From Candidatus Zhuqueibacter tengchongensis (lineage in GTDB: Bacteria; Zhuqueibacterota; Zhuqueibacteria; Zhuqueibacterales; Zhuqueibacteraceae), in contig JAPDQB010000038.1 of NCBI GenBank assembly GCA_034506175.1, forward strand, positions 2,003 to 66,002: a stretch of DNA of 64,000 bases, in the 5' to 3' direction. Made by a program: the position numbers and the translations under genes. Under the pieces are notes generated by a model, which saw only the letters and a program-made list of their open reading frames with translations, had not been told where the DNA came from and ran no database searches. Of this stretch, positions 8,238-48,306 are shown piece by piece; within the stretch, counting starts at the first letter, position 1; each line of letters starts with the position of its first letter.

Positions 8238-9122
<885 letters not shown>

Positions 9123-15852: not shown

Positions 15853-15892
15853 TTAACGAACCGCTGTCTCCACCGAAAAGAGGAACTCGATT

Positions 15893-16267: not shown

Positions 16268-16331
16268 TCATTCGACCACCTCCCCCAATCGGTTATCACA
16301 GCTTTGCCTGTCAACTTTACAGGAGGATATC

Positions 16332-28030: not shown

Positions 28031-28079
28031 CTCATATTCCTGCCAACTCACCTGTTAATTTATTGGGTCTCATTGCCGG

Positions 28080-28310
28080 TGTAATTGTCATGTACGTTTG
28101 CACAGCCATCACGATGAAAATGCAGCGCAGACATCTTATCTGCAGGCAGTCTGGAAGCCTGCGCTACGGCATTTTCGTGGTAATGGCCCATGCCGGGCGC
28201 GGCACCTGATAATGATGAAAATAAACGTTTGTCGTGTCGCCTTCAGGCGTTCAACTTTTGTCGGGAGCCCGACGCCTCAAGGCGCAACGACGAACTTATT
28301 TTCAGAGGAA
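28080..28310 (+). repeat. ~230-nt composite structured repeat, copy B1 (REPIN-like head plus conserved hairpin-rich tail)
   Basis: Aligns along its whole length with 60638-60868 (+) and with the reverse complement of 41417-41649. It contains GCAGCGCAGACATCTTATCTGCAGGCAGTCTGGAAGCCTGCGCTAC and the hairpins GTCGCCTTCAGGCG and GTCGGGAGCCCGAC. Confidence 0.85.
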
Positions 28311-28370
28311 TTCTCGCCAGTTCTGCCGGATTATTATTCCCCACCTTGTAATTCCCCAAGATGTATTCGT

Positions 28371-28411: not shown

Positions 28412-30427
28412 TTATTTCAGCAAAACCGCCTTGCGGGTCTCTGAAAATTTGCCCGCGGTGAGTTGGTAGAAATAGATTCCCCCCGCCACATCGCGCGGCG
28501 CGAAGGTCACGTGGTGATGGCCTGCCTTCATCTCGCCGTCGATCAACCTCGCCACTTCTCTGCCATTCACAGCAAAAACCTTCAGCGTCACGGGGCTGTT
28601 CGCTGGTAACTGAAAACGGATTACTGTTGACGGATTAAATGGATTCGGATAGTTTTGGTAAAGGTGAAACTCGCGGGGAGTCCCCGCAGTGAAAGTGGGT
28701 TCGGTAACTTTGGTGCCGGTCATAAAATTGAATTGGCCGCCATTTGGTACGACATGAATCATACCGTTCAGGAGTGCCGCCGACTGCCGCGGGCCAACGC
28801 TGCCAGAGACGCGATAGGTGGAGAAATCGACTGCCTGCACCCCGCGCGCATCCACGATCAGCGCCGGTGTGGTGCCAAAAACCTGAAGCGAATGATGGGC
28901 AAAATGGAGGTGTGTTCCCGCATCCAACAAAATTCCATAAGCCGCTGGCGCTTTGGCCAGCCCCCAAAATAATCCGGCGGTGCGATTCTCATCATAATCG
29001 GCGTTTTCATAAACGCGCGGCATCACGACAAAGCCGGCGAGAAAATTCAAACCCTGATGCAGCGTCAGGCGACCGCGATAAGCCGCGGTGGTGGAACTTT
29101 CGGTTTGTCCCACTCCTGCCATCCCTGCCAATTTGGTGTCATTCCCCAAAAATAACATTTTGGCACCGGCATTGACGCGCGCGCCAACGGTGCTGCCGAC
29201 CAAAGTCGCCGCGTCAAAAAAAGTCGCGGCGCTATCCAAACTATTTCCGACAAAAACGAAGCCCTTGCAGGAGCGCACTTGATTGGCAAGCGCCGCATCA
29301 TTTTTCGTGGTCTCGCTGATCCACAACAACTGCTGGGGCTGCTGGCGTTGCGTGAGCTGTGCCGATACATTGTGCGCGAGCGTTGCGGCATCCGGAGAGC
29401 AAAAAATTCCTACTGTATCGGAGGAACTCGCGAGCGTTGTCAGAAATCTCGCCAGACTTCCCGAGGGGGCAAACCAATCGGCGCTGTTGTTGCTGCCATC
29501 GAGAGAGATGGCGCCGGCAAGGGCGGCGACGGCCGGCGGCGAAAATGTAGTGGCCGTGGACGGGGTGTATAACATTTGCCCGGTGGGAAGATATATGCGA
29601 AAGCCTTTGGTCATTTGGATGATTTGCACGTCGGAAAGTCTCAGGGGTTGTCCCGGCTGCACGGTGAAATGCGTCTGTGGCGCCGGTCGCAGTACGGTGA
29701 CCACGCCGGAGCCGAAGACCTCGGCGCTGCCATCCGCCGATACGCCGAGGGCCGTGGCGTCGTCGATGCCCACGCCGGTGATCCACTTGCCGGTTTGCTG
29801 GCGATAAACCGCCATCATCGCCAGCAGACGGCCGATTCTGCCGCGCTCGTAAAAATGCGTGTCCGCCAAAATTCCCGGCACGAAGCCGATGAAATCTTCG
29901 GTAAAGGTAATGCCGGCGTTGAGGGGATTGCGCAAGGCGGAGCGGGGATTGACGGAGGTGAGGCGTGCATCGAAAGCGACCGCGCTCAGGACCGCGGCAC
30001 CGGCGCTGGTGCCGCCAATGGCACCGCCGCGTTGATGCACTTGACGAAGCGCTTGTTCGGTCAGCGTGCCTTTCCACAATTCGACATAGCGCCATTGATC
30101 GCCGCCGCGGAGGAAGAGGCCATCGGCCTGCAAGATGGCGCGATAGGTCGCAGAATCATCCGCCAATGTGCGGCTGCTGATCACCAAATTCGTCGCGGTG
30201 GTGGCGCCGAGCCAGAGCAAATAATTCGGCAGGAAACTGGAGGCGTCGGCATAATGCAAAATCAGAATCCGTTTGTTGGCCGCATGCTGCACCAGCCAAC
30301 GATACGGCTCGTCCGACCAACTGTGGTAATTCTCGGAGCCGCCGCCGACGAGCAAGACCGCGCCTTGGCCGAAGGCGAGAGTGGCGAGTAGTCCGAGAAA
30401 CAGGGCCGTGAGTTTTACGCACCGCAT
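28412..30427 (-). CDS. Secreted two-domain peptidase S51 (cyanophycinase-like) protein with T9SS C-terminal sorting domain
   Basis: 671 aa with a signal peptide. The N-terminal S51 domain has an intact GGTSAGA nucleophile motif and ADTHFYERGRIGRL. The second S51-like domain has GNDTKLAG and MPRVYEN at the same positions. The C-terminus reads NYPNPFNPSTVIRFQLPANSPVTLKVFAVNGREV...GIYFYQL. Confidence 0.8.
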   Translation of the reverse strand: MRCVKLTALFLGLLATLAFGQGAVLLVGGGSENYHSWSDEPYRWLVQHAANKRILILHYADASSFLPNYLLWLGATTATNLVISSRTLADDSATYRAILQADGLFLRGGDQWRYVELWKGTLTEQALRQVHQRGGAIGGTSAGAAVLSAVAFDARLTSVNPRSALRNPLNAGITFTEDFIGFVPGILADTHFYERGRIGRLLAMMAVYRQQTGKWITGVGIDDATALGVSADGSAEVFGSGVVTVLRPAPQTHFTVQPGQPLRLSDVQIIQMTKGFRIYLPTGQMLYTPSTATTFSPPAVAALAGAISLDGSNNSADWFAPSGSLARFLTTLASSSDTVGIFCSPDAATLAHNVSAQLTQRQQPQQLLWISETTKNDAALANQVRSCKGFVFVGNSLDSAATFFDAATLVGSTVGARVNAGAKMLFLGNDTKLAGMAGVGQTESSTTAAYRGRLTLHQGLNFLAGFVVMPRVYENADYDENRTAGLFWGLAKAPAAYGILLDAGTHLHFAHHSLQVFGTTPALIVDARGVQAVDFSTYRVSGSVGPRQSAALLNGMIHVVPNGGQFNFMTGTKVTEPTFTAGTPREFHLYQNYPNPFNPSTVIRFQLPANSPVTLKVFAVNGREVARLIDGEMKAGHHHVTFAPRDVAGGIYFYQLTAGKFSETRKAVLLK

Positions 30428-30435
30428 GTGGTCTT

Positions 30436-31431
30436 CTAAAAATTAAGACCGATGGAAAACCGATTCACATTCGACAGCAAATCGTATCGCGAATAGGCGT
30501 AGTCGAACGTCAAGTGGTTTTGCGCGAACGGCAGGGCGACGCCAAAACCCAGCGTGAGGTCCTCGTCATCATAGTTGTAGCGATAGCCGCCGCGCAGAAA
30601 AATCTGATTGGACACGGCGACCTCGGTGCCGAAATTGATACGCTCGCTGTTGTCGTTCGGATGGGTGACATCCAGCCCGAGCTGCCACGCCAGCGGCCCG
30701 GATCGCATGAGCTCCATCGCCACGCCGACTTGAAAATGCAAGGGCAGGGGATAGGCTTCGGTTTCGAGCTTGGCCGGCGCGAGACGATTGCGCGGCAGAC
30801 TGGGATCGGTGTCGAATTTATATGAGAGATCGCGGCCATCGAAGCGCATGTCGCCGCCGAAGTTGGTCAGGCTCATGCCGATGGTGAGATGGCGAAAGCC
30901 GGTGCGATACTGCGTGCCCACATCGAATGCGATGCCCGAGGCGGTTTCGTTCCAAATGCGCTCCTGCACGTATTTGACCGTGATGCCGGCGCTGAAGCGG
31001 TCGGTCAGCGGCCGCGCATAAGTCAAGCCGATCATCAAGTTTTGCGCGTCAAAAGTCTGGCCGGTGCCATCGGGTTCGAGCTCGGTGGTCACTTCCATTT
31101 CGTCCATCGCCAGCACGCTTACGGCCACGCCGAGGGTACCGGCGGAACCCATGCGCAGCGCATAAGCTGCCGAATTCAAGGTCACGGTATTCCACCACGG
31201 CGTATGCGAGAAGTGTACGGATTGATTTTCGATATTGGCGATGCCGGCCGGGTTCCAAAACAACGCGAGGGCGTCGTTGGCCATCGCCACATAGGCGCCG
31301 CCCAGCGCCGCCGGTTTTGCACCGACACCGATCTGTAAAAACTGCGCACCCGCGGTGCCGAGGTTGGGATTTTGCGCCCAGACGGCGGCCGCAATGAAAA
31401 ACATCGCCATAAAGAAAAATTTTATTTTCAT
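30436..31431 (-). CDS. porV: PorV/PorQ-family T9SS outer-membrane protein
   Basis: Signal peptide followed by the family-typical N-terminus (GTAGAQFLQIGVGAKPAALGGAYVAMANDALALFWNPAGIA). It has a beta-barrel pattern and a terminal Phe. I set the start at 31431 because GAGG lies 8 nt upstream. Confidence 0.75.
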   Translation of the reverse strand: MKIKFFFMAMFFIAAAVWAQNPNLGTAGAQFLQIGVGAKPAALGGAYVAMANDALALFWNPAGIANIENQSVHFSHTPWWNTVTLNSAAYALRMGSAGTLGVAVSVLAMDEMEVTTELEPDGTGQTFDAQNLMIGLTYARPLTDRFSAGITVKYVQERIWNETASGIAFDVGTQYRTGFRHLTIGMSLTNFGGDMRFDGRDLSYKFDTDPSLPRNRLAPAKLETEAYPLPLHFQVGVAMELMRSGPLAWQLGLDVTHPNDNSERINFGTEVAVSNQIFLRGGYRYNYDDEDLTLGFGVALPFAQNHLTFDYAYSRYDLLSNVNRFSIGLNF

Positions 31432-31478
31432 AAGCAACCTCATCTTGATTTTTTCGCTGTAAGGCCTCAGTTATTAAT

Positions 31479-31541
31479 GGAAAATGTAGCGCAGACATCC
31501 TCCGGACCCGTCTTGTCTGCAAGCAGGAGGCTTGCGCTACT
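31479..31541 (+). repeat. REPIN-like GTAG palindrome pair (partial B-type head)
   Basis: GAAAATGTAGCGCAGACATCC...TGTCTGCAAGCAGGAGGCTTGCGCTAC, with the same head as the B elements. A GTCGCCTTCAGGCGAC hairpin follows at about 31600. Confidence 0.7.
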
Positions 31542-31642
31542 CCACGCGTAACTGAGACATTATTTTTTTCGCTGAACCGTATTGTCTATCAAAGAGGGTG
31601 GAGTCGCCTTCAGGCGACTTCCAAATCTGATGAATCATCATC

Positions 31643-34156
31643 TTATTTGATCACTGCAAAGCGATCCAGCTTTTGCGCGTTGTCGGTTCGCACCAAATAG
31701 AAATAAACGCCGGAGCTGATCTCACGACCGGCAGAGGTTCGCAAGTCCCAAGTGGCTGCGCCGGTGCCGTCGTCATGTTTGAGCGTTTGAATCAAATCAC
31801 CATCCAGCGTGAAAATGTCGATGGTGCAGGTCGGCGGCAGATGAATGAACTTGAGCTGCCGGATCGGCTCGCGCCGCAGTTGGCCGAACTCTTCCTCGAA
31901 GCGCGAGGCCACGACATACGGATTGGGCACGACGCGGACGCGATGCAGCTCGTTTTTCACGGCTTCTGCACTCACCGTGGCCGTCGTCGTGGTGAATTCA
32001 AACCGGTCTTTGTAAGTGATCGGCTGCGGATTGGCGGCCGGCGGCACAATGGAAAAGATCAAGCCATTCGTCGTCGCGTACGGTTTGGCAAATTCCAAAC
32101 GCCGCAGTCGCATCACCAGCTCGCTGCCGGCAAATACTTGCACGCCGCGACCAATCCAAATCACATCGCCGGCTTCGGGAAAGAAATCGAGCGGCACGGT
32201 GGGGTCGGCATCGTTGATGGTCACGCGCAATCCCTCGAACGTAAAGGGCGTGCCGGAAACATAGGCAAGATTTTTTTGCAAGACCTCGCCGGTGGCCGCG
32301 TCCAAGAGCACCAGCAAATCCTTCGCGGCGAATTTGAGCAAATAACTCTTTGTCGTCGTGGCGTTGAGGTCCGCAATCGTGACCTCGATCACGGAAGCAA
32401 GATTGCCGTGCGCAACGGTGGCGAGGGGAGCAAACTCAACGGTGTAGGTTTTGCCGGCGACACTGGCTTGGTCGGTGGCCGTGATCACGAAGCGATAATT
32501 CGAGTTGCCACTGCCGATCTGGCGCACCGAGGTGGTTTGCGGCGGTGTCCGGCCAATCGCCTCCTGTCGTGGCACCACCGCCACGATATTGGGCACTTCG
32601 AGATTCGAGCCGCGCGGCGACTCCAAGCTTTCAACGCTCGAATCGCCGCGATCGTACGCGGTGATGGAATACCAATATTCCAAGCCGTTGATCACCGTGG
32701 TATCCACGAAACTGTATTGCAAGCCGGTGTCTTTACCGATCCCATCGATTTTGTCGAACTCGACCAACGGCACCGGATCGGGCCCGGCGGTAGGCACCGC
32801 GTTGCGGTCGATTTGGTCCCAGGTTGCACCCTTGTCGAGACTGCGATAAATCCGATAGCCCTCAAAGTCGAATTGATTGGAAAATTTGTCACGCGAGCGC
32901 TCGGCGTTGTCGTCCCAATACAACGTCACGCGGCGGTCGCCGGGAACCGCGCTCAATTTCGGTGGATCCGGCGGGCGCGCCACGGCAAAGTCGAGGTCGA
33001 CAATGGTGTGAGCAATTTTGGTGTTGGCCAGAAGCTGGTTGTGATCGGCTCCCGCCACGATCGCGGTGATGAAGGTGAGCGTGTCGCCGATGTTGAGCGA
33101 ATACGGGCCGGAGCTGGCGATGGCATCGGTGTCGTTGCCGCCGGGGTCTTGCGTGGTGAGATCATCGAAATGGAGATTCGGCGCATTGGCCCCGGGATGG
33201 AAGAATTTCGCTCCGACCGCTGAATTGAACAAGCTCCTGGCGCTGGACATGATGCCATATTGCACGGTATCGACATCGAGCACGTTGAAGTCGTCGTAGA
33301 GAAACCAGTGCAAATCCGTGATGCCCAATTCCTTGCCGTTCACCTTTGGCGTGCGCAAGAAGACGACACCCATTTCGCCGGGAATATTGCCCGGCCATTC
33401 GCTGGTGTAATTATCAGCGTCATAATCATACATGAGCTGCAGCTCTTGGTCAAAGCCGATTTTTTCATCCGCCCACTCCGGATCACCGCCGGGAACATTG
33501 CCGGCATCGATGTCCATGTACATCGCGAAATAGAGACTGTCCAGACGTTTCGTCCCTTTGTTGATGATGTCGAATTTGAAAAAGATCATATCGCTGGCGA
33601 ATTTCACGCCATAGGCGTAGCCGGTCTGGTGCACCTCGAGGCCGAGAATGGCGCGCGTGTTGTTGGAATCGCTGTACACGCAATAGCTGTCCTGATCGGA
33701 GCGAAAGATCGGATTGCCGTCTTGATCCTTCACCGGCCAACCGCTTGCCGGCCAGGTTTGCGGTCGATCGGAAAAGGCGATTTGCGCCAGAGCCGGGTTG
33801 TGATAACCGCCGACGGCTTCCCATTCTTCATTGGTGGTAAAACGGCCTTGCACGACATTTCCCGGCACGCCAACGAAGGGATTGATGCGGTAAATGTAAT
33901 GCCGGCCGCTGCCGATGGGATATTCACCGGAGGGACCTTGGCTGAGGCGGCGCGGATAAAGTTTGCCGCGGTTCTCGAAAAACAGGCCGATGTTGCTCTT
34001 GTTGTGCGTGCCGCCGGCGCGATCTTTGACGCCGAGAATTCCGGCGGGCGCGGCAAGTGATTGCTCTTTCACTTCCTTCGCGATCTCTTTGGCATCATAT
34101 TGAGCAAAGAGCGCAAGCGGAACAGTGCTGCAAAGAATGAAAATGATTTTTCTCAT
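31643..34156 (-). CDS. Large secreted protein (837 aa) with FN3-like region and T9SS/FlgD-Ig-like C-terminal domain
   Basis: Signal peptide MRKIIFILCSTVPLALFAQ. The central segment resembles FN3 (PPKLSAVPGDRRVTLYWDDN...FEGYRIYRS...YWYSITAYD). The C-terminus reads VVPNPY...IDIFTLDGDLIQTL...GVYFYLV. I trimmed the track ORF (to 34336) because it overlapped the upstream receptor gene. Confidence 0.75.
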   Translation of the reverse strand: MRKIIFILCSTVPLALFAQYDAKEIAKEVKEQSLAAPAGILGVKDRAGGTHNKSNIGLFFENRGKLYPRRLSQGPSGEYPIGSGRHYIYRINPFVGVPGNVVQGRFTTNEEWEAVGGYHNPALAQIAFSDRPQTWPASGWPVKDQDGNPIFRSDQDSYCVYSDSNNTRAILGLEVHQTGYAYGVKFASDMIFFKFDIINKGTKRLDSLYFAMYMDIDAGNVPGGDPEWADEKIGFDQELQLMYDYDADNYTSEWPGNIPGEMGVVFLRTPKVNGKELGITDLHWFLYDDFNVLDVDTVQYGIMSSARSLFNSAVGAKFFHPGANAPNLHFDDLTTQDPGGNDTDAIASSGPYSLNIGDTLTFITAIVAGADHNQLLANTKIAHTIVDLDFAVARPPDPPKLSAVPGDRRVTLYWDDNAERSRDKFSNQFDFEGYRIYRSLDKGATWDQIDRNAVPTAGPDPVPLVEFDKIDGIGKDTGLQYSFVDTTVINGLEYWYSITAYDRGDSSVESLESPRGSNLEVPNIVAVVPRQEAIGRTPPQTTSVRQIGSGNSNYRFVITATDQASVAGKTYTVEFAPLATVAHGNLASVIEVTIADLNATTTKSYLLKFAAKDLLVLLDAATGEVLQKNLAYVSGTPFTFEGLRVTINDADPTVPLDFFPEAGDVIWIGRGVQVFAGSELVMRLRRLEFAKPYATTNGLIFSIVPPAANPQPITYKDRFEFTTTTATVSAEAVKNELHRVRVVPNPYVVASRFEEEFGQLRREPIRQLKFIHLPPTCTIDIFTLDGDLIQTLKHDDGTGAATWDLRTSAGREISSGVYFYLVRTDNAQKLDRFAVIK

Positions 34157-34198
34157 AGGGCATCGCGAGGCTAGAAGTGTTACGTCATGACATTTTGT

Positions 34199-34255
34199 TG
34201 TAGTGCCTTTAAGCACTTGAAGTGCCGAACTTGCTGACCCTGAAGGGTCCACTAC
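34199..34255 (-). repeat. GTAG-headed double hairpin (family E), copy 2
   Basis: The minus strand reads GTAGTGGACCCTTCAGGGTC ... AGTGCTTAAAGGCACT. This is the same two-hairpin layout as 48233-48295. Confidence 0.65.
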
Positions 34256-34266
34256 CAAAGCTACTT

Positions 34267-36744
34267 TTACCTTCTCAACCTGAGTCCCAGCCGCACGCGA
34301 CGCGGCGGGCCAAAGTTGGACGGGTCTCGGATCCACTCCGGCGAGTTATTTCCCAGTAGCGTCACATCCGGCAGGCCGGTATCCGAGTAGACATAAAGCA
34401 CATTCTTGAAGTCGGTCAGATTGAGTGCTTCGACGAAAGTCGTCAGCTCGAGGCCGGCCACGCGCCAATCCTTGCCGATCTCGGCATCGAGCGTGAAGGT
34501 CCACGGCATGCGCGCCGAGTTGCGAATCACGAAACCGACGTCGCGGCCGCCGGGCGTGTAGGGATAACCGCTGCTGGCGCGCATCACCACATTCCCGTAT
34601 GTGTTCGCCAACGGCTTGACGCCTAAAATCTCCGGCCCTTCGTCTTTACCAAAAGTCAGACTGGCGCTGGTGTTGATGATGTGCCGTTTGTCGAAATCGA
34701 GATAATATAACAGCGTCGATTCTTGCGTGCCGGGATATTGTTCGGCCTCGGAAGAAGAGCTGCCTTTGGCGATGGAATAGGTGTAGGTCAAGCCGCCGGC
34801 CAAATTCTTGGTGCGGCGCAAGGTGAGATCGATTTCAAAACCCTTGATGTTGGCATAGTCTTCATTGATGTACAGCGTGTAGCCGACATAGCGGCCGCCG
34901 ACAAAGGGATAATAATAGCGCGTGCCGATGAGATCAGTGACATCCTTGTAGTACGCGGTGAAACTCGCCGCAAGATTGTCGGTGAATTGATGTGCCAGAC
35001 CGACTTCGTAGGCCACGGTGCGCTGGGCGTCGAGACTGGGTTGGCCAAAGAGCGGCTCGCGCACGTTCAAATCGTACTGGCTGTTTTCGTAGAGAAATTC
35101 ATATTGCGGGTTCTGGAAGAAATGCCCGTAAGAAAAATGCAGGTTGGTGCGCTCGGTGATGGGATGGGCAATGCCGAGGCGCGGGCTGAGCTGCATTTTC
35201 TTTTTCGATGAAACGATGGAAGTCGGCCGCAGCGGATCGTCACGGAACGGCGCGCGCTGGTCGGCATAATCGAAACGCAGGCCGACATTCAAAATTAGCG
35301 AGGGGAATTCCATTTTGTCCTGAATATACGCCGCCCCTTCGATCGGATTACGATGATAATCATTGTAGTACGGGAAATTGCGTTTCGGATCATAAACGCT
35401 GTTGAGTTTCAAATCGTGCCGCTTGAAATCGAAGCCGGTCTTCAATTCGTGGTGGGTGTGGAATTGCCAAACCAGATCGCCCTTGGCGTTGAAGGTCGCG
35501 GTGCGGTTGTCGATGTATTCCACCGGATGGGCTTTGCTGTAAAACTCGAATCCATTGCCGGCGTCGGATTTATAGACGCGCGCCGAGGTCGGAAGATATT
35601 GGGAGGGCGGCAGAAAATTTTCATTTTCATCCAAGATGCCCAACCGATAACGCTGTTGAAAATAGGAAAACCTGACGTCGTAAAACGCCGCCGGAGACAG
35701 CACATGCTTCAGCGTCAATGTCCCTTGATGGCTGTTGGTGCGGGATTGATAATACTGCTCGGGAATGTATTTCCAGGCATGGCTGTAATTCTGACGTTCA
35801 CCGTGGGTGTAACGATAACTGTAGGTGGTTTTGACAGCGGCGGAAATCTTCTGCGAGAGTTTGCCGAGAGTGGAAAGCTGGCGGTCGTAACCGAACGGCA
35901 ACCAACTGCCGCGATTGTCCTGCTCGCCGGTCAACAGGAAGTTGAGATTCCGCACCAGCGGGCCGCTGAGCGAGCCGTTGACGCGATTCTCATCATACCG
36001 CGAGTAGGGTTTGGCAAAATCGCTGCTGCGCCCCTCGGCTTTGAAGTGAAAGTCCTCCGTTCCCTCGCGCGTGACAATGTTCACCACACCGCTCAAGGCG
36101 TCGCCGTATTCGGCGCTGAAGGTGCCGGAGAGAAATTCCATTTGCTCGATGGCGTCGTTGTGCACCCGCGTGCCCAAGCCGCCGAACAACGGATCTTCGA
36201 CATAGATGCCGTCGATGAGATAGGCCACCTCATTACCCCGGCCGCCGCGAACATGCAACGTGCTGCCTTCGCCAACGACGCCGGCCCGCAAGCGCAACAC
36301 GTCGACAAAATCGCGCACCGGCAATAATTGAATTTCTTCACGACTGACTACGGCCACCGTACCCGTCGCATCTTTGCGGACGAGGGGGCGCTCCGCCACG
36401 ACGGTCACTTCACCGGTCTCCAACGCCATCTCCGTCAGCTCGATATTCAAGGTGGTGGTTTGGTCGACGAAGACTTTGACATTCGCCAATGCGACCGGGG
36501 CAAAACCGATATAGCTCACTTTGACCGTATAGGTGCCGGGCGGGATGTTCAAAATGACGAAGGCGCCTTTGCTGTCGCTCGCCGCGCCCATCGTGGTGCC
36601 CTCCAGCAAGATATTGGCTCCGGGCAGCGCGGTTTTGGAATTTTTGTCCATGACCTTGCCGGCAATTTTGCCGGTTGTTCCTGCCAGCGCGAGAGCCGCG
36701 CTCAACAGCAAGATGGTCATGAGAGCCAGCAACTTGGTTCGCAT
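34267..36744 (-). CDS. TonB-dependent receptor with CarboxypepD_reg-like N-terminal domain
   Basis: 825 aa: signal peptide, GKIAGKVMDKNSKTALPGANILLEGTTMGAASDSKGAFVILNIPPGTYTVKVSYIGF, a plug (LHVRGGRGNEVAYLIDG) and a beta-barrel. Confidence 0.9.
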   Translation of the reverse strand: MRTKLLALMTILLLSAALALAGTTGKIAGKVMDKNSKTALPGANILLEGTTMGAASDSKGAFVILNIPPGTYTVKVSYIGFAPVALANVKVFVDQTTTLNIELTEMALETGEVTVVAERPLVRKDATGTVAVVSREEIQLLPVRDFVDVLRLRAGVVGEGSTLHVRGGRGNEVAYLIDGIYVEDPLFGGLGTRVHNDAIEQMEFLSGTFSAEYGDALSGVVNIVTREGTEDFHFKAEGRSSDFAKPYSRYDENRVNGSLSGPLVRNLNFLLTGEQDNRGSWLPFGYDRQLSTLGKLSQKISAAVKTTYSYRYTHGERQNYSHAWKYIPEQYYQSRTNSHQGTLTLKHVLSPAAFYDVRFSYFQQRYRLGILDENENFLPPSQYLPTSARVYKSDAGNGFEFYSKAHPVEYIDNRTATFNAKGDLVWQFHTHHELKTGFDFKRHDLKLNSVYDPKRNFPYYNDYHRNPIEGAAYIQDKMEFPSLILNVGLRFDYADQRAPFRDDPLRPTSIVSSKKKMQLSPRLGIAHPITERTNLHFSYGHFFQNPQYEFLYENSQYDLNVREPLFGQPSLDAQRTVAYEVGLAHQFTDNLAASFTAYYKDVTDLIGTRYYYPFVGGRYVGYTLYINEDYANIKGFEIDLTLRRTKNLAGGLTYTYSIAKGSSSSEAEQYPGTQESTLLYYLDFDKRHIINTSASLTFGKDEGPEILGVKPLANTYGNVVMRASSGYPYTPGGRDVGFVIRNSARMPWTFTLDAEIGKDWRVAGLELTTFVEALNLTDFKNVLYVYSDTGLPDVTLLGNNSPEWIRDPSNFGPPRRVRLGLRLRR

Positions 36745-36800
36745 AGAGTGCCTCTCTTTGCTTTTTTCGTTAGCGCGGCTTTGGCCGCAACCAAATGCAT

Positions 36801-36840
36801 TGTAAATTTTAAATTGAAAATTTTCAATTTAAAATTTACA
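36801..36840. promoter_or_regulatory. Perfect 40-bp AT-rich palindrome (candidate operator) between rpiR-like gene and TonB-dependent receptor
   Basis: TGTAAATTTTAAATTGAAAA|TTTTCAATTTAAAATTTACA, with the two 20-nt halves exact reverse complements. It lies 57-96 nt upstream of the receptor start and 54 nt downstream of the regulator stop. Confidence 0.55.
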
Positions 36841-36893
36841 ATTATCTTCACGAATGACACTTTTAAGCAATTGGGTGAACTTTTGCCTTTCTC

Positions 36894-37802
36894 TCACCCC
36901 AAAGCCGCTTCGCGCACATACTCATCGGTTTGATGCAACACGCGCGAGGTTTCCTTGAACACTTTTTTCACCGCGTTTTTGTTTTTCAAGGCAATTTCGG
37001 TCGCCAGCGCATTGATCACCACCGAGATCGCCGAAATCGAGTTGGTGTACAACATGTTTTTGGTGCGCACCACCAGAACCTTGGCGGCATGGAAGGTGAT
37101 CGGCGCGGTGAGCTTGTCGGTGATCGCCACCACGGTTATCCCACGACGCTTCGCATACGCCGCCGCGGCGACGGTTTCCCGGGAATAGGGTGGAAACGAA
37201 AAACCGATGACGAGGTCTTTTTTTTGGGCGAGCACGAGATGGCCGGCAAATCGCATCGTGTCGCTCGACAACGCCTGCGCCTCGATCGCCACATTGAGCA
37301 GCTCATAAGCCAAAACCTGCGCCAAAAGCGAGGAGATGCCGATGCCCATGGTGTACACCCGCCGCGCCCGCAGGATCATGGAGACCACTTCCGCCAGCGT
37401 TTGCCGGTCGAGCTCATGGATGGTTTGATTGATGTTCTGCACTTCGTTTTCGGCCACCAGCGTCAACGCCTCGTCGGGGGAATGTTTTCCCCACTCGACC
37501 ATGAACCGATTGACCGGCTCCAGATGTGATTGTAAGACATCCACCACTTCGTCATGCAACGCGGTGAAGCCGTCATAACCCAGACTTTGCGCAAAGCGCA
37601 CGATGGTGGCTTTACTCACCGCGAGCGCTGCAGCCATGGAATCGGTGGTGTGAAAAGCCACCTCGTTCGGGTGTTGCAGAAAATAATTCGCCACCTTTTT
37701 TTGGTTGGCCGGGAGGCGCTGATAAAGCGACAGGATTCTTTGTTTCAGCGCCTCCTGCAAACGTACGCCCGCGACGTTTTTGTTTCGCGTCGTTGCCATC
37801 AT
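36894..37802 (-). CDS. MurR/RpiR-family transcriptional regulator (HTH + SIS domain)
   Basis: 302 aa. The N-terminal HTH_6 pattern reads LPANQKKVANYFLQHPNEVAFHTTDSMAAALAVSKATIVRFAQSLGYDGF. The C-terminal part is a SIS-like domain (RRVYTMGIGISS). Confidence 0.85.
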   Translation of the reverse strand: MMATTRNKNVAGVRLQEALKQRILSLYQRLPANQKKVANYFLQHPNEVAFHTTDSMAAALAVSKATIVRFAQSLGYDGFTALHDEVVDVLQSHLEPVNRFMVEWGKHSPDEALTLVAENEVQNINQTIHELDRQTLAEVVSMILRARRVYTMGIGISSLLAQVLAYELLNVAIEAQALSSDTMRFAGHLVLAQKKDLVIGFSFPPYSRETVAAAAYAKRRGITVVAITDKLTAPITFHAAKVLVVRTKNMLYTNSISAISVVINALATEIALKNKNAVKKVFKETSRVLHQTDEYVREAALG

Positions 37803-38974
37803 TGTATGAGTAACATTTTACGGGTTGCCGCAAAACCGTTGGCACGCAACGTATAAAAGTAAACGCCGCTGGTCAGACCGGTTGCCTCAAACGGCACGAG
37901 GTGCGAGCCGGCCGGCAGCGTGCCCTGCACCAGCGTTCTCACTTCACGACCGCTCGCCTCGTATACCTTCAAACTCACGAAGCTGCTTTGTTCGAGAGTA
38001 AAGCTGATCTGCGTCGTGGGGTTGAAGGGATTGGGATAGTTTTGCTGGAGGGCGAAGCCGCTGGGAACTTGGAGATCGCGTATTTTTACGGCGGTAATCA
38101 ATCCAACCGTACGCGCTCTGGTCTCAACCTCCTTGATGGCTTGAACCATTCCGGCCTCGGTGACATCATACGCCATGGCATAATAATAAGTGGCGGAAGA
38201 ATCATTGGCGCCGATGGTGACCTCACCATTATTGATATGAATCATCGAACGTGTGCCCGCCGGCGAATCCTTGGTGAGATCGAAGCTCCGGTAACTGGCG
38301 GCGTTGAAACGCACGCTATCCGGTTGATCTTCTGCAAAAGAGCCACTGACATAAAATTCTGTGCCCGCGCTCAAGCGCACCCCGGTGGGCACACCGCTGA
38401 CATACTTGGCGCCCAAAAAATGCGCCAGCGTGCCACGGAAAAAGTAAGCAATACTGTCTTGGCTGCGCCAGCGGAGATTATGATCACTGTAACTCTGATC
38501 AATGCGCGGATACAGCTCGAAGGAAATCTTTCCTGTGACCGGAGTGGCTCCCGTGTTCTTGAAGCGATAAGCCACGATGACACCCTTGAGGTCTTTCCAC
38601 ACATACACCGTCATGATGTGATGCAATTTGGAACCGGAGGGGCTTGTCCCCAGCGTTCCGCTTGCTGGACTGGTGACTTTATACAACACGTAATTGGCCT
38701 TGCGTCCAGCCGAAGTCGAGTCAATGGGGAGCGTGGCAATGGTCTTTATCGAATCGTCGAAATTATAAACATTGGACTTGTCGACGGCCAAGTTCAGAAA
38801 GGCCCAGCGATTCATACCGCGAAGCGTGCTGGGATTGGATAATACCAATCTTCCGCCCGCGGAAACAAAGACATTTGCCAAAGGCGTCCCCAATTCAAGA
38901 TCCTGCGGCAACGCGACCGCCGAGAAACCAAAAACCAAGAACGCCATGGTCAAAACCGTTATCAAGTTCTTCAT
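37799..38974 (-). CDS. Secreted hypothetical protein with T9SS C-terminal sorting domain
   Basis: Signal peptide MKNLITVLTMAFLVFGFSAVALPQ. The C-terminus reads NYPNPFNPTTQISFTLEQSSFVSLKVYEASGREV...GVYFYTL. GAGGAGG precedes the ATG at 38974. Its stop overlaps the rpiR-like start (ATGA). Confidence 0.75.
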   Translation of the reverse strand: MKNLITVLTMAFLVFGFSAVALPQDLELGTPLANVFVSAGGRLVLSNPSTLRGMNRWAFLNLAVDKSNVYNFDDSIKTIATLPIDSTSAGRKANYVLYKVTSPASGTLGTSPSGSKLHHIMTVYVWKDLKGVIVAYRFKNTGATPVTGKISFELYPRIDQSYSDHNLRWRSQDSIAYFFRGTLAHFLGAKYVSGVPTGVRLSAGTEFYVSGSFAEDQPDSVRFNAASYRSFDLTKDSPAGTRSMIHINNGEVTIGANDSSATYYYAMAYDVTEAGMVQAIKEVETRARTVGLITAVKIRDLQVPSGFALQQNYPNPFNPTTQISFTLEQSSFVSLKVYEASGREVRTLVQGTLPAGSHLVPFEATGLTSGVYFYTLRANGFAATRKMLLIQ

Positions 38975-39029
38975 AATGCCTCCTCTTGAAAAATAGGGTG
39001 AAAAGTTTTGTAAATTGATCTCGTGATAA

Positions 39030-40442
39030 CTAGTGCGGCCCCCATCCAAACAGCACAGGGATCGCAATCAAGATCAAGCCGGCGGCATAAAAAAGCAGCG
39101 CCAGCGGCAGCGCCCAGCGTAGCCATTTCTCAAAAGGGATTTTCGCAATGCCGAGCACGCCCATGGTCACGCCGGAAGTTGGAATGATCATGTTGTTGAA
39201 GCCGTCGCCGAATTGGAAAATCAACACCGCGGTCTGGCGCGTGATGCCGAGCAAATCGCTCAGCGGCGCCATGATCGGCATCGTCAGCGCCGCCTGACCA
39301 CTGCCGGAGGGCATAAAGAAATTGATGCACGCCTGCACGAACAGCATCAGATACGCCGAGACGAGGGGATGCGCTTGCTGCGTGAGTCCGGACAGCGCCG
39401 CCAAAATCGTGTCGATAATTTTTCCCTCCGTTGCCATCACCAAAATACCGCGCGAAAACGCCACCACCAGTGCCGCCATCAGCATGTCCTTGGCCCCGGC
39501 CACAAACGCCTCGGCGATTTGATTGATCCGCCGCCGCGCCACCATGCCGGCGAGAATGCCCATGCCCAAAAACAGCGCCGCGATTTCAGTGATGTACCAA
39601 TCGAATTTCAGCGCGCCAATCACCAAGCCCGTGAAAGCGAGCAAAAAAATGAGCATCACCAGCTTTTGTGGCCGTGAGAACGTTTCAACTGGTGCGGGGT
39701 TCGCCGCGCCCATCACCTCGCTTTGCCGTTCACGGTCGAGATCGTAAACCGGGCTCAACTGTGGCCGGTGTTTGACTCTTTCGGCATAGCGCACGATGAA
39801 GACGACCGCAATCATGGTCACGATGGCCCAGACCACCACACGATATTCCAATCCTGAAAACAGCGGCAGCTCGGCAATGCCTTGCGCGATGCCGACGGTA
39901 AAAGGATTGGTGAAGGCCGCTGCAAAACCGGCGCCCGCGCCAACGAAAGGAATCGCCACCCCTACGATGGAATCATAGCCCATCGAGCGCGCCAAAGGAA
40001 TAAAAATCAAAATGAACGCCAGCACTTCCTCGCTCATGCCGAAGGTCGCGCCGGCGAGCGAGAACAGCGTCGTGAGCAGCGGGATGGTGGCGGCGCGCAG
40101 GAGTGGCGTGCGTTCCACGAATCGCGTGAAGGCTTTGATGGCGGCATCGACCGCACCGGTGGAAATCACCACGCCGAAGGCGCCGCCAATGAGGAAGATG
40201 AACGCAATGATATTCGCCGCTTCGACAAAGCCGCGCAGTGGCGCGCTAAGGATGGCGCCAATGCCTTGCGGTTGTGCCTCCACCCGCTGGTAAGTGTTCG
40301 GCACCACCACCGTTCTGCCGCTTTTCTCGGCACGATCAAACTGGCCGGCCGGAACGATCCACGTCAACGCCCCCATCACCACGATGATCGCAAAAATCAG
40401 TGCCAACGTGTGCGGAAGTGTGATTTCCTTGATCAGCTTCAT
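39030..40442 (-). CDS. YfcC/DcuC-type anion/peptide carrier family membrane transporter
   Basis: 470 aa, polytopic, with the YfcC-like N-terminus (MKLIKEITLPHTLALIFAIIVVMGALTWIVPAGQF). There is a 4-nt overlap with the cyanophycinase gene. Confidence 0.75.
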   Translation of the reverse strand: MKLIKEITLPHTLALIFAIIVVMGALTWIVPAGQFDRAEKSGRTVVVPNTYQRVEAQPQGIGAILSAPLRGFVEAANIIAFIFLIGGAFGVVISTGAVDAAIKAFTRFVERTPLLRAATIPLLTTLFSLAGATFGMSEEVLAFILIFIPLARSMGYDSIVGVAIPFVGAGAGFAAAFTNPFTVGIAQGIAELPLFSGLEYRVVVWAIVTMIAVVFIVRYAERVKHRPQLSPVYDLDRERQSEVMGAANPAPVETFSRPQKLVMLIFLLAFTGLVIGALKFDWYITEIAALFLGMGILAGMVARRRINQIAEAFVAGAKDMLMAALVVAFSRGILVMATEGKIIDTILAALSGLTQQAHPLVSAYLMLFVQACINFFMPSGSGQAALTMPIMAPLSDLLGITRQTAVLIFQFGDGFNNMIIPTSGVTMGVLGIAKIPFEKWLRWALPLALLFYAAGLILIAIPVLFGWGPH

Positions 40443-41329
40443 TTTTGATCGGGATTCAGTCTTGTCACTCTTCTTTTGCGCAAATCGTAAACCGAACCGT
40501 TTCTCAATACATGCAGCCGTATCTCTTGCGCCCGCAAGCCATACCCAGCATCATCGCGCCGGGCTTGTGCCTTTGTCGCATCGATGACGAGCACAGGACC
40601 GGCGCCAATGATCTCGAAGGTTTGATCCGGCTTGACCCAAATCGCCGTGTTTTCATCGATGCCAATGCCAACCCGTTGTGGATGTTCCAGCACCAAACTG
40701 AGCAGACGGTTGAACCGTTTGCGCCGCACAAAATGCTGGTCGATGATGGCGTGGTCGATAAATCCGAAGCCGGCGCTGGTAACGATATTTTCCGCCTCGA
40801 TGGTGTTGAAAGTGGAATCACCTACCGGCCGGCGCTGATCGCCGGTGATCATCATGGCGCTCATGACGGCCGCGCCGGCGCTGGTGCCACCGATAACACC
40901 ACCGCGCGCATAGAATTCATGCAACCACGCTTCGACCGCGGTGCCTTTGAGGGCCGCGGTCAGACGTGATTGATCGCCGCCGGAAAAGAATACACCGGTG
41001 ACCCCTTTCAGCAGTTGCCGCACCGAATCCGAATTGGCCTGCGCTTTAGTAATATTCAACACTATGGTTTCACCAGCGCCATAGTCGCGTAATTGCTTTG
41101 CCTTGTTGGCTCCCGTTTCGTTGGCGATGCTGCTGGCCATCGGGAAAATGATGACTTTCGCTCGCTCCGCGCCGGCCAAACGAGTAAAAGTCTGCATGAT
41201 GGTAGCCTCACGAATCTCGCCGCCACCCATGATGAGAAGATGGCCTTGCGGTGGCATGGCTGCCGTTTGTCCACCCCCCACGACCGTGATCGCCATGAGT
41301 GTAACGAAAATCTTGCGCGTCATGAACAT
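40439..41329 (-). CDS. cphE: Secreted cyanophycinase (peptidase S51)
   Basis: 296 aa: signal peptide, LLIMGGGE, FFSGGDQSRL, the GGTSAGAAVMS nucleophile motif and IIDQHFVRRKRFNRLL. Confidence 0.8.
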   Translation of the reverse strand: MFMTRKIFVTLMAITVVGGGQTAAMPPQGHLLIMGGGEIREATIMQTFTRLAGAERAKVIIFPMASSIANETGANKAKQLRDYGAGETIVLNITKAQANSDSVRQLLKGVTGVFFSGGDQSRLTAALKGTAVEAWLHEFYARGGVIGGTSAGAAVMSAMMITGDQRRPVGDSTFNTIEAENIVTSAGFGFIDHAIIDQHFVRRKRFNRLLSLVLEHPQRVGIGIDENTAIWVKPDQTFEIIGAGPVLVIDATKAQARRDDAGYGLRAQEIRLHVLRNGSVYDLRKRRVTRLNPDQK

Positions 41330-41416
41330 AGCAGTGCAATCAGTGATAAAAGAGGCGTGATGAAAATTCGAACGTCAGGAATTGAATAGGGTAGTGTACG
41401 CTTTGTTAATCCCGAT

Positions 41417-41649
41417 TCCTCTGAAAATAAGTTCGTCGTTGCGCCTTTAGGCGTCGGGCTCCCGACAAAAGTTAAACGCCTGAAGGCGACACGACAAACG
41501 TTTATTTTCATCATTATCGGGTGCCGCGCCCGGCATGGGCAATTACCACGAAAATGCCGTGGCGCAGGCTTCCAGCCTGCCTGCAGACAAGATGTCTGCG
41601 CTGCATTTTCATCGCGATGGGTGTCCAAACGGACATGAACAATTACTCC
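41417..41649 (-). repeat. ~230-nt composite structured repeat, copy B2
   Basis: Its reverse complement aligns with B1 and B3 over the full length. It lies between the M20 peptidase and cyanophycinase genes, in the sense orientation. Confidence 0.85.
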
Positions 41650-41700
41650 AGAAAAACTATCCCTGGCCTGCGGCAGGGCAGGCACGACCGCGAGGATTTT

Positions 41701-41752
41701 GTAGCGCAAGCTTCCAGCTCGCTTTTGTTTGCAGACTGGGAGTCTGCGCTAC
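41701..41752. repeat. REPIN-like inverted pair of GTAG-headed palindromes
   Basis: GTAGCGCAAGCTTCCAGCTCGC ttttgtt TGCAGACTGGGAGTCTGCGCTAC. The right half is the reverse complement of GTAGCGCAGACTCCCAGTCTGCA. Confidence 0.75.
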
Positions 41753-41764
41753 GAATTATCGGGG

Positions 41765-42883
41765 TCAATCCGGTTCGACCAGAGCGAAAGCAATCTCTGC
41801 GGTTTTAATGAGATCCTCAATCAGGACGAATTCCTCAACGGTGTGGGGCTTCTGGGCGCCAATGCCGAGGTTGATCGCCGGTAGTCCTTTGGCATTCCAG
41901 ATATTGGCGTCGCTTCCTCCCATGTAACGAATCGGATTCGGTACGAGAGCAACAGCGCGCAACGCGCGCTCCAGCGCTCTTACCACCGGCGCCTCGGGAG
42001 CGTGCCCATAAGGCTCGAAATCGTCGTAACTCTCGAAATGGAGGGCACCAATGCCGTTCACCGTACGTGCCGCCGTATCGCGAATCGAAGCGATCTGCTC
42101 TTGAATCCGCCGGCGGGAAAAAGAACGCACTTCCCCTTCAACCACCACTTTGTCCGGAACAATATTGATGGCGGTACCGCCGTGGATTTTTCCGAGATTG
42201 GCCGTCGTCTCCGTATCAATGCGACCGGTTTTGATTTGTGCCAAAGCCGTACTGGCCAAGGCGATGGCATTGATGCCTTCCTCGGGAGCAACCCCAGAAT
42301 GTGCAGCCTTGCCGATAAAAGTGAGTTGAAAAATCGTGGACCCGACACATTCGCGAATATAAGTGCCCGGTCGCCGCGAACAGTCGAAGACAAACGCCTG
42401 TTTGAGGTTGAGCCGGGATAAATCCAGTTGCGTGGCGCCCAGCATGCCGATTTCCTCGGCAACGGTAAAAACGACCATGAAATTCTTATGCGCGCGGCCT
42501 TGCCGCGCCAAAGTCAACAGGAGATGAACCAAGACGGCAACCCCGAGACGATTGTCCGCGCCTAAAATCGTTTTGCCATTGGTGCGCACGGCGTCACCAT
42601 CCGCCACCGGCTCGAGGCAGGCGGTCGATTGAACCGTGTCGAGATGTGCATTGAGAAGCAGAGCCGGTTCGTGCGGGTTGAAATCAGGCGGCAGGCAAAT
42701 TAGATTTCCCGTATTGCCCTGAAGACGTTTTCCGGCGTCGTCCTCCTGCACCCGGATATCATTTTGGCGCAGGAGCCCGATGATTTCATCGGCAATCCGC
42801 CGTTCGCCGAGAGCAACGCCCTCGATCGGCAACAGGCGCAGAAACAACTGCTGGAGAGCCTCCGGGTCGACGCACTTTGTCAT
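41765..42883 (-). CDS. Peptidase M20 family (PepT-like) metallopeptidase
   Basis: M20 motifs: LLNAHLDTVQ, GADNRLGVAVL and FTVAEEIGMLGA. I set the start at ATG 42883 because the longer track ORF (to 42961) begins inside a consensus promoter. Confidence 0.75.
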   Translation of the reverse strand: MTKCVDPEALQQLFLRLLPIEGVALGERRIADEIIGLLRQNDIRVQEDDAGKRLQGNTGNLICLPPDFNPHEPALLLNAHLDTVQSTACLEPVADGDAVRTNGKTILGADNRLGVAVLVHLLLTLARQGRAHKNFMVVFTVAEEIGMLGATQLDLSRLNLKQAFVFDCSRRPGTYIRECVGSTIFQLTFIGKAAHSGVAPEEGINAIALASTALAQIKTGRIDTETTANLGKIHGGTAINIVPDKVVVEGEVRSFSRRRIQEQIASIRDTAARTVNGIGALHFESYDDFEPYGHAPEAPVVRALERALRAVALVPNPIRYMGGSDANIWNAKGLPAINLGIGAQKPHTVEEFVLIEDLIKTAEIAFALVEPD

Positions 42884-42940
42884 GATTTGCACCAATTGTT
42901 TCACAAAAATGATTAACTGAAACAACTGACTCGCCGCCAT

Positions 42941-42969
42941 ATTATAATAACGTTCTTTCAATTTGTCAA
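42941..42969 (-). promoter_or_regulatory. Consensus sigma70-type promoter (TTGACA-17 nt-TATAAT)
   Basis: The minus strand reads TTGACA aattgaaagaacgttat TATAAT, about 55 nt upstream of the M20 peptidase ATG at 42883. Confidence 0.55.
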
Positions 42970-43112
42970 GTGTTTTTTTCTTTTGCTAAATTCTCTTTTT
43001 TCGATTTATATTGTAGCCGGAACCATGTCGCGGTTTATTGAACCGTGATAGGGGATCATCATACCATCGTTTTGTCATGACAATCGAATCTATATTTCCG
43101 AGAGGCGTTGCA

Positions 43113-44216
<1,104 letters not shown>

Positions 44217-48232: not shown

Positions 48233-48295
48233 GTAGTCGTCCCTTCAGGGACTGAATGCAGCATCATTATCGAGAGTGCCTAAAGGCACTGCGAC
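48233..48295 (+). repeat. GTAG-headed double hairpin (family E), copy 1
   Basis: GTAGTCGTCCCTTCAGGGACT ... AGTGCCTAAAGGCACT GCGAC, located in the gap between the two giant TPR genes. Confidence 0.65.
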
Positions 48296-48306
48296 GAAAC
48301 AGAATA

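Follow-up and report, generated by a model that had tools for sequence, protein, structure and literature searches.

A co-directional gene array was analyzed in a 64-kb stretch of DNA (the window), which is the visible part of the genome of the hot-spring bacterium Candidatus Zhuqueibacter tengchongensis. The array occupies positions 28412-42969 and combines genes for S51 (cyanophycinase-family) enzymes and an M20 peptidase with genes for transport, secretion and regulation; a role in scavenging the polyamide cyanophycin is considered here. The Zhuqueibacterota, formerly KSB1, belong to the Fibrobacterota-Chlorobiota-Bacteroidota (FCB) superphylum, and neither cyanophycin nor a type IX secretion system (T9SS) nor TonB is mentioned in the paper on this phylum (PMC11683472). 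The closest relative is a hot-spring metagenome-assembled genome (MAG), Candidatus Zhuqueibacter pondensis, whose cyanophycinase is 94% identical to that of the window.

Gene calls for the window proteins of 28412-42969 were supported by Pfam and NCBIfam profiles. Every long open reading frame (ORF) lies on the minus strand, and nine genes were supported. Read from the promoter end, they encode an M20 peptidase with Peptidase_M20 and M20_dimer domains (41765-42883; 372 amino acids, aa), a short S51 cyanophycinase-family enzyme matching TIGR02069 (40439-41329; 296 aa), a YfcC/DcuC-family carrier matching PF03606 (39030-40442; 470 aa), a T9SS type-A cargo protein matching TIGR04183 (37799-38974; 391 aa), an RpiR/MurR-family regulator with HTH_6 and SIS domains (36894-37802), a TonB-dependent receptor with CarbopepD_reg, Plug and barrel domains (34267-36744; 825 aa), an all-beta exported protein of 837 aa without a Pfam match (31643-34156), a PorV/PorQ-family outer-membrane beta-barrel matching NF033709 (30436-31443; 335 aa) and a long S51 protein with a T9SS tail that matches TIGR02069 and TIGR04183 (28412-30427; 671 aa). 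A preliminary description of this DNA had listed eleven genes in one direction. The common direction was borne out and the domain calls were backed overall, whereas nine genes could be supported and the sole further ORF (41320-41709) was rejected.

Three further features of that description were recovered. First, a sigma-70-type promoter (TTGACA-17-TATAAT) is predicted on the minus strand at 42941-42969, from the consensus match alone (12 of 12 positions); the M20 start codon lies about 58 nt downstream of it. Second, 4-nt overlaps join the short S51 gene to the YfcC gene (40439-40442) and the gene of the 391-aa cargo protein to that of RpiR (37799-37802). Third, a perfect palindrome of 44 nt (22+22 nt) lies at 36799-36842, between the RpiR and receptor genes. 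It is AT-rich, consists of three adjacent TTGAAAATTTTCAA-like units and overlaps promoter-like hexamers upstream of the receptor gene; as a speculation, it may be a candidate operator. The exact 44-nt palindrome had no match in 99 relative loci, and loosely similar AT-rich TTTTGAAA-like motifs occurred in loci L002 and L007 only.

The conservation of the array was assessed in a scan that took a single genome from each species and had an M20 protein alignment as its query. This yielded 244 relatives, of which the best 80 were tallied. According to their record titles, 47 of these 80 loci were Ignavibacteria-type, 22 Bacteroidota and 7 KSB1 or unclassified, the remainder being one Caldithrix, one Chlorobi and two oddly binned contigs. 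Partner genes were counted among these 80 in just those loci with enough downstream sequence to hold them. An S51 gene adjoined the M20 gene in 62 of 72 such loci, and a YfcC gene was present in 63 of 66. RpiR (52/57), the receptor (47/52) and the 837-aa protein (42/51) followed with similar regularity. In KSB1 relatives, the order M20, S51, YfcC, cargo, RpiR, receptor, 837-aa protein and barrel, in part with the long S51, was kept at 56-98% protein identity. The complete locus, including the long S51, was found in an Ignavibacteria genome (L018), and a locus of an unclassified bacterium (L019) lacked just the long S51 within the available stretch. The preliminary description had made its idea depend on conservation of the association in related genomes, and S51, YfcC, M20 and receptor genes indeed co-occur in genomes labelled Ignavibacteria, Bacteroidota, KSB1 and Caldithrix. 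Thus, the gene association is beyond chance, since the order recurs in dozens of species-level genomes of several phyla.

Two oddly labelled MAGs were also seen. One, labelled Synechococcus sp. UW140 (L044; CALRIY020000092.1), holds the M20-S51-YfcC-cargo-RpiR-receptor-837aa part of the locus, and another, labelled Acidobacteria (L045), holds M20-S51-YfcC only. Most likely, the L044 contig is mis-binned and an associated heterotroph is its true source; a lifestyle of feeding on cyanobacteria would agree with this.

Both S51 proteins exceeded the cut-off of the cyanophycinase equivalog TIGR02069 (126.6 bits), with 196.2 bits for the short and 128.9 bits for the long protein, and the PepE profile gave 21.6 bits against a cut-off of 156. 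When the short S51 was aligned to CphB of Synechocystis (3en0), the motifs GGDQ, GTSAG, DQHF-R-R--R and IDE were kept, and the protein matched CphB at Q101, S132, D172, Q173, H174, R178, R180, R183 and E201. The roles of these CphB residues reportedly go back to Law et al. 2009; we take the Ser-His-Glu triad to be catalytic and the others to line the cyanophycin pocket at the corresponding S51 positions. Both proteins retain the catalytic Ser and His, and the short S51 additionally has the acid Glu and all pocket-lining residues of CphB. The first domain of the long S51 keeps the same residues except for Q173T and E201D. Across 61 members of the long-S51 family (41-100% identical), the CphB-equivalent positions are invariant or nearly so, and GGDQ, S141, H191, R195, R197 and R200 of the long S51 are invariant.

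The AlphaFold2 (AF2) model of the long S51 had a predicted local distance difference test score (pLDDT) of 92 and a predicted template modeling score (pTM) of 0.81. Its top structural matches were cyanophycinases, over about 280 residues with template modeling (TM) scores of 0.80-0.87 and 24-25% identity, which is consistent with domain 1 of the model being the matching part. The long S51 had been described as a two-domain S51 protein. Domain 1, which appears to be an active S51 domain, and the T9SS tail (33.5 bits; TIGR04183 cut-off for the type-A sorting domain, 23 bits) stood. The second domain had no significant S51 match (hidden Markov model E 0.15, marginal). Residues ~300-570 show an alpha/beta secondary-structure pattern like that of domain 1, without the Ser/His motifs, so that domain 2 may be a degenerate S51-like domain that perhaps replaces the partner subunit in the usual cyanophycinase dimer.

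A sub-variant without the short S51 was observed in L028, L029, L030, L035, L037 and L040, where YfcC directly follows M20. Among these, the longer loci (L028, L029, L035 and L040) still have the receptor, and L040 also holds a long S51. Thus, the short enzyme is dispensable in some lineages.

The true start of the M20 protein is M27 of its ORF (ATG at 42883), which gives 372 aa, compared with 369-371 aa in relatives. Seven orthologues, down to 40% identity, all share residues H80, D82, D110, E143, E144, D167 and H347; to judge from other M20 enzymes, these are presumably the metal-binding and catalytic residues. A search of the PDB with the M20 protein returned a "Poly(Aspartic acid) hydrolase" (7ljh, E 6e-10). 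Hydrolysis of beta-Asp-Arg by such an enzyme is chemically plausible, since beta-Asp-Arg is an N-acyl-arginine.

The strongest argument for this function is positional. A second scan, centred on S51 proteins, was used to compare the third enzyme around the core of S51 and YfcC-family genes. This core stood beside IadA in Bacteroidales MAGs (L121, L127) and in Pseudobacteriovorax (L136), beside IaaA in Cytophagales (L116), and beside M20 in loci of the window type and in a Muribaculaceae SusC/SusD locus (L154). IadA and IaaA, both known to split beta-Asp-Arg, thus occupy the equivalent place, which supports an equivalent role for M20. A tblastn search with E. coli IadA and IaaA found no homologue in the window. 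Among Bacteroidota that encode CphA1, just 22% have IadA or IaaA, whereas all have a cyanophycinase (Sharon & Schmeing, PMC10206079); therefore, a missing dipeptidase is to be expected in this group. In the searchable literature, nothing relevant was found that links M20 or YfcC with cyanophycin. Taken together, we give even chances to the M20 protein being the beta-Asp-Arg dipeptidase.

Additional peptidase-type genes flank several related loci. An M14 carboxypeptidase gene directly follows the long S51 in the Ignavibacteria-type loci L016 (9146-10627) and L018 (16032-17498). L019 has an M14/AstE-like gene together with an MR_MLE (dipeptide-epimerase-like) gene (13869-15542 and 15547-16683), and the Bacteroidales locus L121 has MR_MLE and M28 genes (5919-7028 and 7042-8601). 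The M14 genes behind the long S51 in Ignavibacteria were checked as possible CphZ genes: their PDB matches were distant M14 carboxypeptidases only, and no entry named cyanophycin dipeptide hydrolase was returned by the PDB sequence search. These flanking genes may process cyanophycin side chains or products.

At the outer membrane, the locus departs from the SusC/SusD pattern. The receptor scored 99 bits against the SusC profile TIGR04056 (cut-off 368) and is thus below SusC/RagA grade, and no SusD domain was detected by Pfam or NCBIfam in any locus protein. Homologues of the 837-aa protein number more than 1157. The AF2 model of this protein (pLDDT 81) is a string of fibronectin type III (FN3)-like beta-sandwich domains without an enzyme fold. 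PorZ (5m11) was among the top structural matches, though weakly (TM 0.11), and the C-terminus weakly resembles those of PorZ (E 1e-4) and PorU (E 9e-3). Three T9SS cargo proteins had been proposed for the array; the long S51 and the 391-aa protein exceeded the TIGR04183 cut-off, whereas the 837-aa protein did not. The barrel, previously called PorV, belongs to the PorV/PorQ family (NF033709, 231 bits; cut-off 90) and falls below the equivalog cut-offs of PorV (NF033710, 82 bits; cut-off 250), PorQ and PorV2.

The three outer-membrane genes recur as a trio. In the relatives whose sequence covers the stretch, the barrel gene comes after the 837-aa homologue and the receptor gene before it. Both members of the 837-aa family that were picked for a context look-up (L018, L019) sit in the same locus type. 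The trio also stands ahead of a long S51 gene where the locus label reads Calditrichaceae, Caldithrix, Fidelibacterota or Neomarinimicrobiota. The barrel probably serves the 837-aa protein as its dedicated partner and, by analogy with the pairs PorZ-PorQ and PorU-PorV, may anchor it at the surface beside the receptor. The 837-aa protein is a candidate surface capture protein, whose role would resemble that of SusD or of surface glycan-binding proteins in polysaccharide utilization loci (PULs). Its residues ~45-117 (FENRGKLYPRR...EEWEAVGGYHN) form the most conserved stretch of the family, with many invariant residues and the lowest model confidence (pLDDT 40-60); judging from the model, this stretch could need a partner, for example the barrel or the receptor, in order to fold. 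Between the 837-aa and PorV-like genes, some KSB1 relatives have a gene of the 23S_rRNA_IVP family (~132 aa; L005, 20132-20533; L008, 19678-20076).

The carrier at 39030-40442 matched PF03606 with 369 bits and NF008611, "putative basic amino acid antiporter YfcC", with 398 bits (cut-off 500). By these profile scores, it belongs to the DcuC/YfcC superfamily and is not an equivalog of E. coli YfcC. Since the family was also found with S51 and IadA or IaaA in other taxa, for example in the IadA-type Bacteroidales locus L121, the carrier is a candidate importer of beta-Asp-Arg. The 391-aa cargo protein (TIGR04183, 36.9 bits) has an uncharacterized N-terminal domain, and its position was kept in most related loci at 26-64% identity.

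The predicted export signals fit an ordered set of compartments. The long S51 and the 391-aa cargo protein each combine a signal peptide with a T9SS tail of type A. Orthologues of the short S51 have Sec signal peptides, many of which end in AQ just ahead of the first conserved strand. The M20 orthologues have no signal peptide, and their sequence opens directly with the catalytic domain. An order from surface S51 through receptor, periplasmic S51 and inner-membrane carrier to cytoplasmic M20 is thus supported by the predicted signals.

From these observations, a pathway is proposed by which the bacterium would scavenge cyanophycin; we regard this use of the locus as probable. First, the 671-aa S51 would leave via the T9SS to the cell surface or the medium and break down the insoluble cyanophycin that lysed cyanobacteria release, yielding short oligomers and beta-Asp-Arg dipeptides. 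Second, the 837-aa protein, held by the PorV/PorQ-like barrel, would help to capture polymer or fragments, possibly together with the 391-aa cargo protein. Third, the TonB-dependent receptor would bring fragments into the periplasm, where, fourth, the signal-peptide-bearing 296-aa S51 would complete their cleavage to dipeptides. Fifth, the YfcC-family carrier would take the dipeptide into the cytoplasm, and sixth, the M20 metallopeptidase would split it into Asp and Arg. Finally, the RpiR-type regulator would control the locus, perhaps via the AT-rich palindrome before the receptor gene. Cyanophycin utilization had been proposed in the preliminary description, and this reading gained support from the comparative genomics, the signal peptides and the occurrence of IadA and IaaA in the equivalent place. 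As to cyanophycin synthesis, a presumed N-terminal motif of the synthetase CphA had no match in the relative loci; the motif itself is possibly wrong, and no conclusion was drawn.

A number of observations weigh against this pathway or against single steps of it; they are given here together with the explanations that they would favor. As regards uptake, the need for a TonB receptor could be questioned, since dipeptides could cross the outer membrane via porins. As regards the last step, cyanophycin may be scavenged while the dipeptide is split by an enzyme of the IaaA, IadA or CphZ type encoded elsewhere in the genome, M20 being an accessory enzyme that trims alpha-linked peptides or oligomers or acts as a tripeptidase. 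The best NCBIfam match of the M20 protein was the PepT-like TIGR01883 (245 bits, just under the cut-off of 274), and the nearest proteins of solved structure carry the names Peptidase T (3gb0) and tripeptidase (3rza), for neither of which do we know of an assigned substrate. In the KSB1-like loci L022 and L023, an Asparaginase_2 (IaaA-like) gene lies inside the locus, between RpiR and the receptor, in addition to M20; given these loci, M20 may be no simple replacement of IaaA. With 64 kb of the genome in view, an unlinked IaaA, IadA or CphZ gene may also exist. These points are countered by the tight linkage of M20 to S51 and YfcC in the census, where in some relatives the M20 and S51 genes are separated by just a few nt or overlap (by 8 nt in L018), by the equivalent position of IadA and IaaA elsewhere, and by the lack of an IadA or IaaA homologue in the window. 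Moreover, an IaaA-like gene within an S51-containing locus was seen in just 2 of the 80 M20 loci; in a further locus (L067), an IaaA gene lies 3.8 kb from M20, without S51 or YfcC. M20 is also predicted to be cytoplasmic, as the last step requires. An accessory role of M20, with another enzyme as the dipeptidase, is considered rather unlikely.

The substrate itself might be different, namely another Asp-rich or isopeptide-containing peptide or a glycopeptide, such as cell-wall- or protein-derived Asp-X, with S51 enzymes of exopeptidase- or PepE-like function in a general peptide locus. In the PDB, the short S51 was closest in sequence to 7uqv, titled "Pseudobacteroides cellulosolvens pseudo-CphB". 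According to Sharon et al. 2022, pseudo-CphB reportedly keeps all catalytic residues yet degrades no cyanophycin. It shares the motifs of the short S51, and motif conservation is therefore no guarantee of activity. The long S51 lies just above the TIGR02069 cut-off and carries the two substitutions noted above, and the S51 family also spans PepE and the "cyanophycinase-like exopeptidase" 6nqc, which was among the S51 relatives in the PDB search. RpiR/SIS regulators usually sense sugar phosphates and are an odd fit for a polyamide locus, and other locus variants have FecR-type regulation in place of RpiR. The M14, M28 and MR_MLE epimerase-like genes of related loci would likewise suit a broader peptide diet. 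On the other side, both S51 proteins exceeded the cyanophycinase equivalog cut-off and were far below that of PepE, the arginine-rich CphB pocket residues are kept in the short S51, the long S51 and the long-S51 family, and sister loci pair S51 and YfcC with isoaspartyl dipeptidases, pointing to beta-aspartyl dipeptides as products. A substrate other than cyanophycin is judged quite improbable.

On a further reading, a small M20-S51-YfcC operon would lie by chance beside housekeeping genes or unrelated uptake genes, namely those of the receptor, the T9SS cargo and the PorV-like barrel. This would agree with the likely presence of three or more transcription units (promoter-like sites and gaps of 150, 110 and 199 nt) and with a long S51 that stands alone in L017 and apart from the receptor module in L016. 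Yet it is close to refuted by the synteny census, in which receptor, 837-aa protein and barrel follow M20-S51-YfcC in most Ignavibacteria-, Bacteroidota-, KSB1- and Caldithrix-labelled loci; the context of both looked-up 837-aa family members and the trio preceding the long S51 in the further labelled loci named above also speak against it.

Besides the genes, a dispersed, hairpin-rich repeat of about 235 bp lies between M20 and S51 (41415-41650), outside the pathway. It shares 94% identity with a copy at 28078-28311 and 90% with one at 60633-60871, each of them reversed relative to it, so that the window holds three copies of this miniature inverted-repeat transposable element (MITE)- or repetitive extragenic palindrome (REP)-like element with 90-94% identity. 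The inverted copies at 41.4 kb and 28.1 kb bracket 13 kb, from the short S51 to the long S51. Pieces of the repeat were also seen between the genes of the Ca. Zhuqueibacter pondensis locus (L002, L013). The gap between M20 and S51 is 436 nt in the window, compared with a median of 71 nt in relatives, because the repeat was inserted there. The 129-aa ORF at 41320-41709 sits on this copy, which accounts for it as a spurious frame; it has no family match and is poorly conserved in a relative whose neighboring proteins are 93-99% identical.

Beyond the promoter end, two adjacent plus-strand ORFs (43038-43505 and 43641-44219) match parts 103-198 and 213-287 of the Beta_elim_lyase profile. This pair (43038-44219) resembles a frameshifted or decayed gene of the threonine-aldolase/tryptophanase type, divergent from the locus promoter. 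Farther out, tandem TPR-repeat giants of 1030 and 1583 aa are encoded on the opposite strand (45134-48226 and 48256-53007). At lower coordinates, the neighbors at 17107-19995, 20225-22969, 24681-25673 and 25706-28030 perhaps form a further uptake locus; this stretch encodes a pentapeptide-repeat T9SS cargo protein, a second CarbopepD_reg-type TonB receptor, a ROK-family protein and a 774-aa protein without a Pfam match.

In cyanobacterial mats and blooms, cyanophycin forms a major reserve of fixed nitrogen, and its consumers and its route after lysis are only partly known. If the proposed pathway is true, the consumers of cyanophycin in hot springs, sediments and fens would include Ignavibacteria, KSB1/Zhuqueibacterota, Caldithrix and Bacteroidota, in whose labelled genomes the locus type is widespread. 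M20 would be a testable candidate for the dipeptidase gap of Bacteroidota with a cyanophycinase, and its family would fill that gap in the many Bacteroidota-group genomes that have a cyanophycinase and lack IadA, IaaA and CphZ; YfcC would be a candidate dipeptide importer. The trio of receptor, 837-aa protein and barrel suggests PUL-like uptake without SusD by means of T9SS-delivered partners, which bears on polymer acquisition by FCB members outside the Bacteroidota. Tentatively, and with somewhat more doubt than confidence, both proposals are combined: the M20 subfamily, with 244 relatives in species-level genomes and nearly always beside S51 and YfcC, would constitute a fourth family of cyanophycin-dipeptide (beta-Asp-Arg/Lys) hydrolases, and the trio, independent of SusC/SusD, dependent on the T9SS and common to several phyla of the FCB superphylum, a new outer-membrane module for the capture and import of polymers. 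Current ideas would not be overturned by this; the known scheme would be extended with candidates for an enzyme, a transporter and an uptake module.

Cyanophycin utilization loci (CULs) have been known since 2017, and the abstract of that work, by Ben Hania et al. (Environ Microbiol 19:1134), reportedly speaks of a transport complex homologous to PULs. The preliminary description had held that its locus type was not an established one, which was wrong, and the PUL-like logic for a polyamide that it recognized holds, though it was already established. The term "cyanophycin utilization locus" was applied to Bacteroidetes by Ben Hania et al. 2017, as cited in PMC10206079, and cyanophycin-scavenging clusters are mentioned there for strain L21-Spi-D4 and for Flammeovirga pacifica (Sharon & Schmeing). 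Of the two cyanophycinases noted in Salinivirga, and likewise in Cyclonatronum, one is plain and the other bears a Por secretion domain (Sorokin et al., PMC6243061). In another case, a TonB receptor lies beside a cyanophycinase gene, and cyanophycin was inferred as its substrate from this adjacency (Tang et al. 2012, PMC3400609).

The CUL of Salinivirga cyanobacteriivorans L21-Spi-D4 was compared as far as citing papers and the Bacteroidales locus L121 portray it. L121 encodes IadA, a long S51 with a T9SS tail, a second S51, SusC, SusD, a PKD protein, a T9SS cargo protein and DcuC; it looks like the classical CUL layout and served as a stand-in for the Salinivirga locus. As seen through these sources, the Salinivirga-type CUL and the window locus share the pair of a plain and a Por/T9SS-tailed S51, a DcuC/YfcC-family carrier, an outer-membrane TonB-dependent transporter, extra T9SS cargo proteins and the PUL-like logic for a polyamide. 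They differ in the final hydrolase, which is IadA in the former and the PepT-like M20 peptidase in the latter, and at the outer membrane, where SusC/SusD contrast with the non-SusC receptor, the 837-aa protein and the PorV/PorQ-like barrel. The window locus further differs by its RpiR-type regulator and its host among the Zhuqueibacterota (KSB1), and its variant is also common in Ignavibacteria-labelled genomes.

Clusters of cyanophycinase with IadA, IaaA or CphZ (PMC10206079, PMC9974463) likewise have S51 followed by a dipeptide hydrolase in clustered genes, often with an amino-acid transporter, in hosts that scavenge and do not make cyanophycin. In these clusters, the hydrolase is the amidohydrolase IadA, the Ntn-hydrolase IaaA or CphZ, whereas M20 takes this place in the window, where IadA and IaaA had no tblastn match. 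Some Ignavibacteria versions have M14-family flanking genes, without a PDB match named for cyanophycin-dipeptide hydrolysis. Undescribed in the searchable literature are M20 as the linked final hydrolase, the SusD-less module of receptor, 837-aa protein and PorV-like barrel, and the wide spread outside the classical Bacteroidota.

The SusC/SusD PULs of Bacteroidota and the oligopeptide importer RagAB resemble the locus in having a TonB-dependent importer with a surface partner next to a surface depolymerase. Further common traits are an enzyme that finishes the cleavage in the periplasm, a carrier in the inner membrane, a last step in the cytoplasm and a regulator of their own. PULs and RagAB have SusD or RagB, a lipoprotein, as the surface partner, whereas the window locus has neither, its receptor is far below the SusC/RagA cut-off, its partner is apparently a T9SS-exported protein with a PorV/Q-like barrel, and its substrate would be a polyamide. 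The Bacteroidales variants L121 and L154 do hold SusC/SusD.

Finally, PorZ-PorQ and PorU-PorV of Porphyromonas gingivalis also combine a large all-beta surface protein with a PorV/PorQ-family barrel of the 14-strand type. The C-terminus of the 837-aa protein resembles those of PorZ and PorU, two proteins that retain their C-terminal domains, and PorZ is among its structural matches; the likeness is weak in both sequence and structure. The P. gingivalis pairs belong to the secretion machinery, whereas the pair in the window lies in a nutrient-uptake locus beside a TonB receptor, where the barrel would serve to anchor the 837-aa protein.

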